Shown here in pieces: positions 45,333 to 51,864 of a DNA stretch of 64,000 nt (positions are counted from its first letter, which is position 1; each line of letters begins with the position of its first letter). The stretch comes from SAR202 cluster bacterium (GTDB lineage Bacteria; Chloroflexota; Dehalococcoidia; Lucifugimonadales; UBA6952): the NCBI GenBank assembly GCA_009392515.1, contig VFGE01000030.1, positions 1,633 through 65,632 of the forward strand, in the 5' to 3' direction. A model generated the notes under the pieces. It was not told the origin of the DNA. It did no database searches and saw only the letters and a program-made list of their open reading frames with translations. A program made the position numbers and the translations under genes.

Positions 45333-45408
45333 TGGTGCCCCTGATGCGACTCGAACGCACGACACACGGTTTAGGAAACCGTTGCTCTATCCTCTGAGCT
45401 ACAGGGGC
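45333..45408 (-). tRNA. tRNA-Arg (anticodon CCT), CCA encoded
   Basis: Acceptor stem GCCCCTG/CAGGGGC-ACCA, anticodon arm ACGGT-TTCCTAA-ACCGT, TTCGAGT T-loop; 76 nt. Confidence 0.97.
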
Positions 45409-47705: not shown

Positions 47706-48497
47706 TTATATTTTGGGAACTCCAAGGTGTAGGGATAAATAGTCCAATAAAGAGGAAAGATTTTCTGGGTTTTTTTCAATACTTAGATTGGTAGTCATTG
47801 GTGTGATAGATATTAGGTCGTTACGAACAGCCCATACATCGGTATGTTCTATTTCATCCCAATCAGGCCTAGTTCTTGTTACCCAATGAAATCTTTGAGT
47901 TCGAAAATCTTCAACATTAATTGAATCAGAATATACTCTATCAGCTAGTGTAGTTTGAGTAATACCTTTTATTTCAGTTGGTTTTTTATTTGGCATGTTG
48001 ATATTTAACAAAGATATATCTTGGTATATTTTTGATTCATATGCTTCAGCCATTAAAGTTGCTACTTTTGCGCCTATATCGAAATTGTCTGGTGTTAAAG
48101 AAGCAATTGAAAGAGCGATGGAGGGGATTTTTCTTACATATCCCTGAAGAGCTGCTCCAATGGTTCCAGAAAAAACCACGTCATCTCCAAAATTACTTCC
48201 ATTATTAATTCCAGAAATAACTAAATCCACCTTTCCGATTATTGTTTCAAGCCCAAGTATTGCAGAATCGGCAGGTGTTCCACTAGTTGCGTAGCAAGGG
48301 AAGTTAATATTAGAATTCGGTAAGTCATTGATACAATTTATAGTTATTGGGCTAAATAGAGAAATAGAGCAACCTGCACCGCTACAGTTTTTATTTGGAG
48401 CTGTTATAGCAATCTCATGGTTTTCAGATAATGTATTTGCAATTGCCCAAATGCCCGGAGCATAAACTCCATCATCATTAGTGAGTAGTATTTTCAT
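47706..48497 (-). CDS. surE: 5'/3'-nucleotidase SurE
   Basis: ILLTNDDG, SGTPAD, SGINNGSN, SGTIGAA. Confidence 0.95.
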   Translation of the reverse strand: MKILLTNDDGVYAPGIWAIANTLSENHEIAITAPNKNCSGAGCSISLFSPITINCINDLPNSNINFPCYATSGTPADSAILGLETIIGKVDLVISGINNGSNFGDDVVFSGTIGAALQGYVRKIPSIALSIASLTPDNFDIGAKVATLMAEAYESKIYQDISLLNINMPNKKPTEIKGITQTTLADRVYSDSINVEDFRTQRFHWVTRTRPDWDEIEHTDVWAVRNDLISITPMTTNLSIEKNPENLSSLLDYLSLHLGVPKI

Positions 48498-48506
48498 AAA
48501 TTTTCC

Positions 48507-49337
48507 TTAAAATGTTAGATTATCGATAAGCCTTGTTTTTCCTATACAAACTGAAATTAGTATAATTGATGACGGTGAGACCAAATCTACCGGCTCAAAT
48601 GTAACTTTATCACGAATACTAATATATTCAATTCTTATTAAAGATTCTTTTTCAAGATAGTTTTTAATAGATATAATAATATTACTTGCAAGTGTTTCAC
48701 CCTCTAAGTATAAACGTTTACCATATTTTAATGAAGAATATATTTTATTAGCCGCATTTTTTTCTTTTATATTTAAATAGACATTTCTACTACTTAAAGC
48801 TAGCCCATCATTTTCACGTACTGTTGGAATAGCTATAATTTTTGATCCGTGATTTAAATCATTATTTAGTCGATCAATTATCAAGTACTGTTGAAAATCT
48901 TTTTGCCCAAAGTAGGCGTTATTTGGTTTTGTTATATTAAGCAATTTTGAAACGACTGTTGATACTCCTCTAAAATGACTAGGTCTCTTTTCACCTTCTA
49001 GAACAGAACTTAATTGATCATTAATTACAATAGTTTGAAACTCTTTGGGATACATTGTAGACGCATCTGGTGCAAATAATATATCAATTTCTAGATCTGA
49101 AAGTATTTTTTTATCTCTTTGAAAATTTCTAGGATATGTATTAAAGTCCTCATTTTGGCCAAATTGTGTTGGATTAACAAATAGTGTGACTATTGTGGTT
49201 GTATTTTGTTTTTTTGATTCATTGATTAATTTGATATGACCTTCATGTATAGAACCCATGGTTGGCACTAGACCAATAGGTCTTTGAACACTATTGCATA
49301 TTCTTTGCATCAATGGTATGGATTTTATTATTTTCAT
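48507..49337 (-). CDS. panC: Pantoate--beta-alanine ligase
   Basis: VPTMGSIHEGH, FVNPTQF, RPSHFRGV, FGQKDFQQ, GLALSSRN, RLIDN. Confidence 0.96.
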   Translation of the reverse strand: MKIIKSIPLMQRICNSVQRPIGLVPTMGSIHEGHIKLINESKKQNTTTIVTLFVNPTQFGQNEDFNTYPRNFQRDKKILSDLEIDILFAPDASTMYPKEFQTIVINDQLSSVLEGEKRPSHFRGVSTVVSKLLNITKPNNAYFGQKDFQQYLIIDRLNNDLNHGSKIIAIPTVRENDGLALSSRNVYLNIKEKNAANKIYSSLKYGKRLYLEGETLASNIIISIKNYLEKESLIRIEYISIRDKVTFEPVDLVSPSSIILISVCIGKTRLIDNLTF

Positions 49338-49415
49338 GAGTTTATAAGAAACTTTTCTAGATGATTTTAGCTACTTATTCTTTGTGAATAGATCGATCAC
49401 ATTTTTGTTGGATAA

Positions 49416-50420
49416 CTATTTCTGGTCTTTCGATAATTGTATTTCATTACAACTGGGTACTCCGCCTAGTGATGAAGCAATTCTAGTACCTCTGATAATT
49501 GCTTCAGACATTACCATAGGTGCTAGAGCATATATGGATGTAAGTGTTGATCTATCGATATTTTGAGAAGATTCCCAGGTAGATATTGAGAAAACCACAT
49601 CACCATCTCCTGGCATATGGCAGGGTTGTATTGTCATTGCAAACCCATCTTGCCCTCTCTCGGCTAGTTTGTTTGTTTGAGACTTATCCAAGCATAAATT
49701 TGTTGCCACAATACCTAATGTTGTATTTTCTCTAATATTTTGATCCTCATTATTAGATGATTGGGATGAATTCAGCAAAGAGTTCATATAGGTATCGAAT
49801 GTTTTATTTTTTCTATCATATGGTTTTGATACATAGGTACCGGTTTTAGGGTCTACTATATCACCAGCGGCATTAACTGCAGCAATTGCTCCAATTTGTA
49901 TGCCATTATCCAAGGTTATACAATAACTACCGATACCACCTTTTAGGCATCTATCCCAACCTAGCATTTTAGATACCGTAGCACCTGTTGCGGCGCCTAC
50001 GCTACCTTCATCAAATTCAATAGATGCATTTTTTGCTGCTGTGTAGCCTTCAGTTATACTTGGGCTAAAATCATTACTTAATAAGTTTAAATCAAATAAA
50101 ATAGCACTAGGTACAATTGGTATGACATTTGTTCCAATGTTATATCCAACGTTCTTTTCTACAAGATATCTCATTACACCACCTGCTGTATCTAGACCAA
50201 ACGCACTTCCGCCACTTAGAGATATTCCATGGATTTTTTCAACCAATTGACCCGATTTTAATAAATCAGTTTCTCTTGTTCCAGGTGCAGTTCCTCTAAC
50301 ATCTACACCACCTGTGGCTCCGTTTTCACAAAGAAGTACAGTACAACCAGTGCCTTTTTCTTTATTAGTATAATGACCTACGGTTATTCCCTTAATATCT
50401 GTTATTTTTCCTATTTTCAT
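49416..50420 (-). CDS. P1/DmpA-family autoproteolytic Ntn hydrolase (ThnT/NylC-like Asn-Thr site)
   Basis: ITDIKGITVGH, GVDVRGTAPGTRE, GGSAFGL, ENTTLGIVATN, DGDVVF. Confidence 0.88.
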   Translation of the reverse strand: MKIGKITDIKGITVGHYTNKEKGTGCTVLLCENGATGGVDVRGTAPGTRETDLLKSGQLVEKIHGISLSGGSAFGLDTAGGVMRYLVEKNVGYNIGTNVIPIVPSAILFDLNLLSNDFSPSITEGYTAAKNASIEFDEGSVGAATGATVSKMLGWDRCLKGGIGSYCITLDNGIQIGAIAAVNAAGDIVDPKTGTYVSKPYDRKNKTFDTYMNSLLNSSQSSNNEDQNIRENTTLGIVATNLCLDKSQTNKLAERGQDGFAMTIQPCHMPGDGDVVFSISTWESSQNIDRSTLTSIYALAPMVMSEAIIRGTRIASSLGGVPSCNEIQLSKDQK

Positions 50421-50443
50421 TTATATTCATTTCTCATTTAAAT

Positions 50444-50466
50444 AAAAAAACGACTCCTAAAAGTCG
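50444..50466 (-). terminator. Intrinsic terminator about 23 nt upstream of the P1 hydrolase start
   Basis: Minus strand CGACUU-UUAG-GAGUCG followed by U7. Confidence 0.75.
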
Positions 50467-50562
50467 CTGGGATGTTCATATTTTACTTGTCTAGGTCATT
50501 AACGATCCCAGCAGTAGTTATCAATTTAAAACAATCTTCGCTCATCCCAGATGTGGACTGCC
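50444..50562 (-). ncRNA. Candidate structured leader/attenuator RNA (about 120 nt)
   Basis: Promoter upstream, two alternative CUGGGAU strands for one AUCCCAG strand, terminator at the 3' end; no recognised Rfam class. Confidence 0.5.
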
Positions 50563-50567
50563 AGTAG

Positions 50568-50596
50568 ATACTATCAATCATTACATCTTTGGTCAA
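50568..50596 (-). promoter_or_regulatory. Sigma70 promoter of the leader and P1 hydrolase block
   Basis: Minus strand TTGACC-N17-TAGTAT. Confidence 0.6.
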
Positions 50597-50712
50597 ATAT
50601 TAATAAATCTTATATACGATATAAAAAACTGACTATTACGGAATTCGAAATTGTAGTAATATACACAATATTAATGTTCTTGAAATACTTTGAAATACTA
50701 AGGATAGTAGTT

Positions 50713-51864
50713 GTGTCGGATAATTTTGGGCAATCGAGTCAATTTAAAACTATAAGTCATGCTTATGGGTTTGAAGATGTCGGAATTGTGCCAGGTGAGA
50801 TTACAATTAATCCAGACCAAACCGATTTAAGCGTTTATATTGGAGAATACAAACTCGATATTCCTGTGTTAGCTTCTGCTATGGATGCCGTTATGTCTCC
50901 CGAATATGCTATATTAATGAGCCAAATGGGCGGACTTGGGGTTTTAAACCTTGAGGGTATTTATTCACGATATGAAGACTACCATGAGATAATTGATAGA
51001 ATTGTCAATTCTGATGCTACACAGGCTACTAATTTGATGCAAGAAATATATGCACAACCTATTCGAGAAGAATTGATTGCTGTAAGAATCAAACAAATTA
51101 AAGACCAAGGTGCAATTTGTGCAGTATCATTTACCCCGCAAAATGCTAAAAGACTAGCCCCAGTTGCAGTTGATGCTGGAGCTGATTTAGTTGTGATACA
51201 AGCAACGGTGACAACAGCAAGGCATCTTTCAAAAAGTAATGTGGGATTAAATTTCGATACGTTAAAAGAAATTGTCAAAGTACCTTTATTAGTTGGTAAT
51301 TGTGCATCATTTGGTGCTGCTAAAGAACTTATGAATTGTGGTATTGATGGTTTATTAGTGGGTGTAGGCCCAGGAGCTGCTTGTACAACAAGAGAAGTAG
51401 TTGGAGTTGGTGTGCCACAAGTAACAGCAACTATGGAATGTGCTGCTGCAAGAGAGCAGTATTATAATGATTCTGGAAAATATGTACCAATATTCACAGA
51501 TGGAGGTATCAGAACAGGTGGTGATTTGTGTAAATCAATTGCCTCTGGTGCTGATGGAGTAATGATCGGTACCCCTTTTGCTCAAACTGAAGAAGCAATT
51601 GGTAGAGGTTTCAATTGGGGAATGGCTACTCCTCATCCAGCCTTACCTAGGGGTATTAGAATAAATGCAGGAGTGAAAGGTTCTATAAAACAACTTTTAT
51701 ACGGACCATCAAGTCGCACAGATGGGACTCAAAATCTCATTGGGGCTTTAGAGGTAGGAATGGGAATGTGTGGTGCATATAATATCAAAGAAATGCAACA
51801 GGCAGATTTAGTTATAGCACCTTCCATACGTACAGAGGGGAAAATATTTCAGCACTCAATCTGA
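50713..51864 (+). CDS. guaB3: GuaB3-type IMP dehydrogenase (no CBS domains); start reassigned to GTG 50713
   Basis: AYGFEDVGIVPG, ASAMDAV, GVGPGAACTTR catalytic Cys, DGGIRTGGD. Confidence 0.9.
   Translation: MSDNFGQSSQFKTISHAYGFEDVGIVPGEITINPDQTDLSVYIGEYKLDIPVLASAMDAVMSPEYAILMSQMGGLGVLNLEGIYSRYEDYHEIIDRIVNSDATQATNLMQEIYAQPIREELIAVRIKQIKDQGAICAVSFTPQNAKRLAPVAVDAGADLVVIQATVTTARHLSKSNVGLNFDTLKEIVKVPLLVGNCASFGAAKELMNCGIDGLLVGVGPGAACTTREVVGVGVPQVTATMECAAAREQYYNDSGKYVPIFTDGGIRTGGDLCKSIASGADGVMIGTPFAQTEEAIGRGFNWGMATPHPALPRGIRINAGVKGSIKQLLYGPSSRTDGTQNLIGALEVGMGMCGAYNIKEMQQADLVIAPSIRTEGKIFQHSI

Follow-up and report, generated by a model that had tools for sequence, protein, structure and literature searches.

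A likely pan RNA attenuator ahead of a pantothenate operon in a low-GC marine SAR202 bacterium

The subject of this work is the 5' leader of a pantothenate operon in a 64-kb stretch of DNA from a SAR202 cluster bacterium of the Chloroflexota (contig VFGE01000030.1, positions 1,633 to 65,632). The whole stretch is called the window; all coordinates are numbered on it, and the leader and the operon genes are read on its minus strand. We consider it likely that this leader belongs to the pan RNA motif (Rfam RF01749), as a diverged member of low GC content, and acts as a transcription attenuator; the element is a further member of a known orphan family and adds no new class of regulator. The pan motif and its association with pan operons were described by Weinberg et al. 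(2010, Genome Biol 11:R31), with the Chloroflexota as one of the three phyla in which it was first reported; its members are mostly tandem, those of the delta-proteobacteria being single. An earlier note on this DNA had listed the leader as unclassified, a description that the present analysis replaces, as the leader matches the pan motif, which that note had itself named as background, in its hairpins, location, operon and phylum, and a covariance model built from canonical pan leaders (here called R1) finds the element. Much of what the same note had read from the letters has stood: the promoter TTGACC-N17-TAGTAT, the terminator with its U7 and the gap of 23 nucleotides (nt) before the ATG lie on the minus strand where it had placed them, the 5' leader RNA carries an intrinsic terminator whose 5' flank is involved in mutually exclusive pairings, and the downstream block (S58 peptidase, panC and surE) is pantothenate-related.

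Membership of the leader in the pan family

Reading away from the promoter, the leader consists of hairpin 1, a linker, hairpin 2, an 11-nt spacer, CAUCCCAG, the terminator and 23 nt that lead to the ATG. Its features are as follows.

50596-50568 (minus strand): sigma-70-type promoter, TTGACC-N17-TAGTAT, from a consensus scan; -35 box TTGACC at 50596-50591, -10 box TAGTAT at 50573-50568, with a TG in the 17-nt spacer before the -10 box
50561-50486 (minus strand): pan motif, two tandem bulged-A hairpins
50540-50561 (minus strand): hairpin 1, GC-A-GUCC-A-C [AUCU] G-GGAU-GA-GC (GGCAGUCCACAUCUGGGAUGAGC), from the Rfam pan and R1 alignments
50515-50539 (minus strand): A/U-rich linker of 25 nt between hairpins 1 and 2
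50486-50514 (minus strand): hairpin 2, C-UG-CUGGG-A-UCG [UUAA] UGA-CCUAG-A-CA-AG (CUGCUGGGAUCGUUAAUGACCUAGACAAG), from the Rfam pan alignment
50462-50474 (minus strand): switch strand CAUCCCAG-C-GACU, which combines the pre-terminator with the terminator 5' arm
50444-50467 (minus strand): intrinsic terminator, GCGACUU-UUAG-GAGUCGU (50467-50450; core CGACUU-UUAG-GAGUCG) with a U7 tract (50450-50444), from a terminator scan

Transcription would start at G50562 or G50561, at the base of hairpin 1. The start codon is the ATG at 50420, which opens an open reading frame (ORF) for a protein of 334 residues, and, as the earlier note had held, the consensus scan found no promoter-like site between the terminator and this ATG. 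Canonical leaders were found 5' of homologs of the S58 peptidase that heads the operon (at most 49% identity among the matches listed), found by a profile search of contigs with an S58 alignment. They follow the order promoter, hairpin 1, linker, hairpin 2 (CCGCUKGGAUC-loop-GACCGAGACGG), terminator and start codon, as does the window, with a TTGAC(A/C/T)...TAnnnT promoter in the equivalent place immediately 5' of hairpin 1 and linkers of a length similar to that in the window.

At the gathering threshold, the Rfam scan of the whole window missed pan and returned only a tRNA, so that identification of the motif needed an E-value scan and comparative work. The tRNA gene (45336-45408, minus strand, 65 bits) is the sole Rfam family above its gathering score in the window. 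In the E-value scan of 50300-50900, a check that the earlier note had proposed, pan ranked top at 50483-50562 on the minus strand with 21.3 bits, below the curated gathering score of 36.2 bits, and the leaders of two relatives were likewise sub-threshold at 24.7 and 23.5 bits. No validated riboswitch family of Rfam matched the leader, whether the cut-off was the gathering score or the E-value. Directly 5' of the orthologous S58 gene, above-threshold pan matches were found at loci L002 (45.8 bits) and L004 (43.6 bits). On other canonical Chloroflexota leaders the Rfam model gave 27.8 bits for L039 and reported nothing for L001 and L017 at E <= 10, whereas all three carry clear tandem pan hairpins and are given 42-72 bits by R1. 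Since the Rfam model fails on clear Chloroflexota members, we read the sub-threshold score of the window as a limit of the model's sensitivity and not as non-membership. The Rfam pan model under-detects GC-rich and AT-rich Chloroflexota members alike.

Model R1 was built from 9 canonical leaders and contains no sequence from the window clade. An alignment of all leaders with MAFFT had misplaced the 3' strand of hairpin 1 in the window clade, L035 and L039, and R1 was therefore restricted to the 9 cleanly aligned canonical sequences. When searched against the window and 96 loci (650 kb), R1 made a single match in the window, at 50484-50562 on the minus strand (29.1 bits, E 4.5e-4); close relatives scored 26-35 bits and the group of L087 just 16 bits. 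Comparison of orthologous leaders, also called for by the earlier note, revealed conservation and compensatory change in the hairpins: in a joint alignment of 20 leaders, 92.8% of cells were in standard pairs and 13 of the 19 pairs were compensatory, and pairing fell to 30-41% when the partners were slid by 1-3 columns. The helix of hairpin 1 was 93% paired in the 20 leaders, with 7 of its 9 pairs compensatory. Since the joint alignment (A7) had itself been fitted to R1, the count for hairpin 2 was repeated on a sequence-only MAFFT alignment, which gave 89.5% paired cells and 7/10 compensatory pairs (slid controls, 20-43%).

Overall, the leader has two bulged-A hairpins whose bulge positions align with those of canonical members in both the Rfam and the R1 alignments, arranged as a tandem pair with a 25-nt linker, and it lies 5' of an operon with panC (in close relatives panB too). 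Homology is given by the independent model R1, with covariation consistent with the family, and the leader falls short on one point, the Rfam gathering score. Hairpin 1 matches the Chloroflexota pattern GC NNNNN A CC..GG NNNNN A GC. Its bulged A residues are at 50554 in the 5' strand and 50542 in the 3' strand, where an adjoining A.G mismatch turns the bulge into a small internal loop. Hairpin 2 has its bulged A residues at 50506 (5' strand) and 50490 (3' strand), with helices of 2, 5 and 3 pairs around them, and can alternatively be split as CUGCUGGGAUC [GUUAA] UGACCUAGACAAG. It retains the family signature GGAUC...GACC.AGAC and is the best-fitting part of the Rfam pan alignment. Besides the tandem bulged-A hairpins and this signature, the window shares with the pan motif the 5' leader of a pantothenate operon, the phylum, and canonical members at the orthologous position ahead of the same S58 gene. 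It differs in the shortened top of hairpin 1 (one pair and a tetraloop) with the A.G mismatch beside the 3' bulge, in the outer U-A pair of hairpin 2 (U2-A27) in place of the canonical C-G, in a G.U at a conserved U.G or G.G position, and in the competitor of the terminator, which is hairpin 1 here and the 3' strand of hairpin 2 in canonical Chloroflexota. The alignment of Weinberg et al. (2010) includes AU-rich Clostridial variants and forms of hairpin 1 that resemble that of the window.

Proposed coupling of the hairpins to the terminator

A terminator-like hairpin ending in a U tract lies 3' of the motif in 18 of 20 leaders and in 83 of the 115 metagenomic pan leaders that we fetched by the pattern of the canonical hairpin 2. 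The terminator 5' arm of canonical leaders usually reads (G)CCUUCUCGG or CCCUCUCGG, the complement of the hairpin 2 3' strand CCGAGACGG, so that a folded hairpin 2 frees the arm and an unfolded one can sequester it, which is the logic of an OFF switch set off by any factor that stabilises the hairpin. This complementarity was assessed in the 60 canonical leaders whose terminator lies within 35 nt of hairpin 2, the cut-off being an arm that beats 95% of shuffled arms. The 3' strand of hairpin 2 passed in 24/60 leaders, compared with 3/60 for the reversed-strand control and 1/60 for the 5' strand. A duplex test of the whole pan region against the terminator arm in canonical leaders gave no distinct signal, as GC-rich sequences pair strongly by chance.

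Complementarity between the arm and the 3' strand of hairpin 2, as seen in canonical leaders, is absent in the window clade. Here the best partners of ACAUCCCAGCGACUU are the two strands of hairpin 1 (AGUC:GACU and CUGGGAUG:CAUCCCAG), those of the switch strand being the 3' strand CUGGGAUG (50550-50543) and, in the 5' strand, AGUC (50559-50556). When paired with hairpin 1, the switch strand forms a duplex of -15.8 kcal/mol, compared with -9.1 +/- 2.3 kcal/mol for shuffled arms, and beats 99.7% of the shuffles. The pairing is present in every member of the clade, where it changes only from C to U opposite G and from A to G opposite U. In a transcript cut at the terminator loop, the minimum-energy fold is that in which the switch strand is paired with hairpin 1. 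The terminator hairpin itself was scored at -7.0 kcal/mol in the hairpin search and -7.7 kcal/mol when evaluated within the full leader, and its stem can be drawn in the extended form (A)GCGACUU-UUAG-GAGUCGU(U) at 50468-50449; changes to the stem in relatives preserve pairing (for example U.G to C-G), and its loop varies freely.

Conservation within the clade was counted over 20 distinct leaders and differs sharply between regions. Variable columns number 0/18 in the stems of hairpin 1 and 2/4 in its loop, 2/8 in CAUCCCAG (both C-to-U opposite G), 3/12 in the terminator arms and 3/29 in the promoter, and they rise to 16/25 in the linker, 17/25 in the strands of hairpin 2 and 4/4 in the terminator loop; GGAUC and GACC of hairpin 2 are gone in the group of L087 and L110. 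The hairpin that is tied to the competing pairing is thus the one whose sequence is frozen, hairpin 2 in canonical leaders and hairpin 1 in the window clade, a pattern that fits what would be a re-wired expression platform in the window clade. As far as the sequences go, the competing pairing appears to have shifted to hairpin 1 in this clade.

Two further candidate features were rejected. A helix enclosing hairpin 2 was predicted in several leaders, and its position was not conserved, so we do not regard it as a family-wide feature. A 13-codon ORF, MNIPATFRSRFFI (50441-50482, minus strand), covers both switch strand and terminator; it lacks a Shine-Dalgarno sequence, its AUG is gone in L085, L087 and L090, and it is probably not a leader peptide.

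Proposed mechanism and competing explanations

We propose that the pan leader would work as a transcription attenuator at the 5' end of the mRNA. A trans-acting factor would hold the pan hairpins folded and leave the switch strand free; the terminator would then form and turn the operon OFF. This factor would most likely be a dimeric RNA-binding protein that reports pantothenate or coenzyme A (CoA) status, as the discoverers of the motif suggested. When the factor is absent, hairpin 1, which is weak (-5.6 kcal/mol), would open and its strands would pair with the switch strand (-11.3 kcal/mol), occupying GACU in the arm of the terminator and favouring read-through. In canonical Chloroflexota leaders hairpin 2 would take the competing role, with its 3' strand pairing with the terminator 5' arm. 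Protein-mediated attenuation is favoured by the negative outcome of probing together with the suggestion of a dimeric protein: when a Geobacter pan RNA was probed in-line, neither pantothenate nor CoA nor beta-alanine modulated it at 1 mM, and the discoverers judged a dimeric protein the likelier binder (Weinberg et al. 2010).

The proposal can be set beside known systems. The PyrR binding loop of pyr operons is an example of a hairpin site for protein-dependent attenuation. The pan leader is like it in having a leader hairpin 5' of a terminator, where stabilisation by a protein would block the antiterminator, and in the feedback logic of a biosynthetic operon. The likeness would be one of logic only; the pan motif has no known binding protein and no resemblance to the PyrR site in sequence or structure. 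Riboswitches of the OFF type that work by a terminator and an antiterminator are similar in that the sensor helix, antiterminator and terminator are mutually exclusive and lie at the 5' end of an mRNA for vitamin or cofactor biosynthesis. They are unlike it in that the pan motif consists of two simple hairpins with no multi-helix pocket and gave negative results on probing with pantothenate, CoA and beta-alanine.

The alternatives to protein-mediated attenuation differ in what they ask of the hairpins. In a metabolite-binding riboswitch, which we regard as unlikely, the hairpins would themselves bind pantothenate, pantetheine, CoA or another intermediate and the ligand would choose between terminator and antiterminator. 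A biosynthetic operon whose terminator is coupled to the leader through mutually exclusive pairings is the typical architecture of such a device. The sequence of hairpin 2 is conserved far beyond the needs of pairing, only three compounds have ever been tested, on a single construct, and the niche is open because no riboswitch is known for the CoA pathway, CoA itself still being listed without one in reviews up to 2022. The Geobacter probing argues the other way, as do the two simple hairpins with no junction or obvious pocket, to which the discoverers preferred a dimeric protein site, and the decay of hairpin 2 in the window clade, with GGAUC and GACC lost in the group of L087 and L110, is ill-suited to a precise pocket. 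That the pan hairpins directly sense a compound of the pathway, such as pantoate, pantetheine, 4'-phosphopantetheine or dephospho-CoA, is given a low standing, which it shares equally with autoregulation in which a dimeric enzyme encoded by the operon, for example PanC or the S58 protein, would bind both hairpins. Somewhat further from our expectation, and improbable, is the exact wiring drawn in the earlier note, in which AACAUCCCAGCG pairs with the hairpin 2 5' strand GCUGGGAUCGUU in the ON state and with CUGGGAUG in the OFF state, and GGCAGU pairs with ACUGCU in a pseudoknot by which the antiterminator strand is sequestered. All three complementarities exist in the window, as that note had said: CAUCCCAG(C) at 50474-50466 with CUGGGAUG (50550-50543) and with GCUGGGAU (50512-50505), and GGCAGU (50562-50557) with ACUGCU (50515-50510). 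The ON helix is, moreover, as stable as the hairpin 1 alternative (-11.6 and -11.3 kcal/mol), and a fold with hairpin 1, the ON helix and a shortened terminator reaches -21.3 kcal/mol, within 1 kcal/mol of others. The relatives speak against it. Only the window and the near-identical L119 group have a perfect ON helix GCUGGGAU:AUCCCAGC; other members of the clade carry either a central A.C mismatch (L081, L083, L085 and L086) or two mismatches (L087 and L090), and the pseudoknot decays, losing pairs in L086, L087 and L090. In addition, the ON helix overlaps just 2 bases of the terminator stem, and the 5' strand of hairpin 2 is the partner of the arm in a single one of the 60 canonical leaders. 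The conserved alternative is instead the pairing of CAUCCCAG-C-GACU with both strands of hairpin 1.

The conservation within the clade bears on two further readings. The element could be a relic of a pan motif whose hairpins are no longer a sensor, with hairpin 1, the long-range helix and the terminator forming a clade-specific attenuator, constitutive or under a different control, or a stabilising structure (for example, control by polymerase speed or nucleoside triphosphate levels, or a stability element of the 5' end). Within the clade hairpin 2 does drift and partly decay, in contrast to the frozen sequences of hairpin 1, CAUCCCAG and the terminator, and the minimum-energy fold of the full-length leader contains the long-range helix and the terminator together and lacks hairpin 1. 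We nevertheless hold a relic to be a poor prospect, as hairpin 1 still follows the family pattern, with both bulged A residues in place, the window and most of its relatives keep a good hairpin 2, and position, promoter spacing and operon match those of canonical pan leaders. That there is no functional RNA at all, only AT-rich intergenic sequence in which a promoter, a chance pair of hairpins and a weak terminator-like hairpin occur together, is very unlikely. The Rfam score is indeed sub-threshold, promoter-like hexamers are commoner in shuffled sequence (14.2 expected, compared with 8 in the real sequence) and the fold energy of the leader is ordinary (z = -1.2); the latter two, as single-sequence statistics, are weak, and it is the comparison between sequences that carries the case. 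Region-specific conservation across 24 distinct leaders, a significant match to an independent covariance model, covariation, and the same architecture in about 100 other pan leaders all speak against chance. Several observations nonetheless weigh against a pan attenuator of the kind proposed. Besides the Rfam score of 21.3 bits, under the gathering score, and the ordinary fold energy, hairpin 1 has the A.G mismatch and just one pair above its 5' bulge. The two sides of the pairing between switch strand and hairpin 1 are invariant, so that there is no covariation and the support consists of three one-sided wobble changes. The proposed antiterminator covers just 4-5 of the 7 bases of the terminator arm. 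In the full leader the states with a terminator (-22.1, -21.3 and -20.7 kcal/mol) are more stable than that without (-17.9 kcal/mol), which means that the ON state would have to be kinetic. The literature searched contained no experiment that showed regulation by any pan RNA, and no functional study of a pan RNA after the 2010 description, only listings in transcriptome papers.

Operon context and implications for the family

The leader precedes a conserved block of genes.

49416-50420 (minus strand): peptidase S58/P1 self-processing amidohydrolase, 334 amino acids (aa), first gene (Pfam PF03576, E 6e-44)
48507-49337 (minus strand): panC, pantoate--beta-alanine ligase, second gene (Pfam PF02569, E 1e-92)
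47706-48497 (minus strand): surE, 5'/3'-nucleotidase, last gene of the conserved block and in the same place in relatives (Pfam PF01975)

The S58 protein has the self-cleavage motif ENTT and no model in NCBIfam. Among solved structures it is closest to nylon-oligomer hydrolases and to ThnT (E about 1e-45), the enzyme that hydrolyses pantetheine in thienamycin biosynthesis. The S58 protein may hydrolyse pantetheine or a beta-alanyl amide and so feed pantothenate synthesis, and the ThnT-like S58 gene as recurrent first gene points to pantetheine salvage as the physiological context. Relatives of the protein are 80-92% identical, the next being at 56%. The genome of the window, a metagenome-assembled one, has 34% GC, and the relatives come from Tara and other marine assemblies. 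Close relatives are syntenic, with a divergent GuaB3-like gene 5', then the leader and S58-panB-panC-surE.

In the window, panB is missing between S58 and panC (49338-49415), a clean deletion of about 790 nt, and there is none within the 64 kb. A 277-aa panB lies between the two genes in L081-L089 and in the L119 group, the leader RNA of which is identical to that of the window. In a separate lineage (P0135/P0136; L105-L109 and L128-L130, from Tara Oceans) panC likewise comes next after S58, which marks the operon without panB as a real and recurrent variant; it suggests reliance on external pantoate or pantothenate precursors.

Among distant Chloroflexota, the orthologous S58 gene heads an operon of S58, a DUF2520/PanG-like reductase, panB and panC. 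The protein between S58 and panB is Rossmann-like with a DUF2520 domain (L094, 3674-4588; L095, 3495-4439; L096, 3495-4439), and we take it to resemble the PanG type of ketopantoate reductase, a likeness not confirmed by NCBIfam; the window clade has no PanG-like gene. Where a metagenomic locus with canonical hairpin 2 had enough downstream sequence, pan genes followed on the same strand in 82 of 95 cases, and the first gene after the motif in these 82 operons was PanG-like in 31, panB in 29, S58 in 18 and panC in 4. A DUF503 gene that stands divergently beside some canonical leaders was considered as a candidate regulator and set aside, being confined to one related group and absent from the window.

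On the other side of the leader lies a divergent gene (plus strand) of the GuaB3 family of IMP-dehydrogenase-related proteins (TIGR01304, 383 aa in relatives), which probably starts near 50713 and not at 50551, the first ATG of the listed ORF. A promoter-like TTGAAA-17-GATAGT (50680-50708, plus strand) ends about 5 nt before this start and hints at an mRNA that is leaderless or nearly so. Between this gene and the pan promoter, 40-65 nt 5' of the -35 box, there is a block of 25 nt, ATTACTACAATTTCGAATTCCGTAA (50636-50660, minus strand), of which 23/25 nt are identical in all 11 sequences of the 80-92% clade, with variable flanks; its role could be that of a transcription-factor site or of an UP-like element.

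These results extend the pan motif, an orphan since 2010, to a low-GC marine lineage of Chloroflexota that the curated Rfam model misses, and the element in the window exposes a gap in the sensitivity of that model. The family gains a testable mechanism, in which the folding of the hairpins would be linked to an intrinsic terminator by a pairing that competes with it. Direct sensing by the hairpins, if true, would make the motif the first natural riboswitch for the pantothenate/CoA pathway. The motif's repeated association with a ThnT-like S58 amidohydrolase and with a PanG-like reductase focuses the search for the effector on the metabolism of pantothenate or pantetheine.

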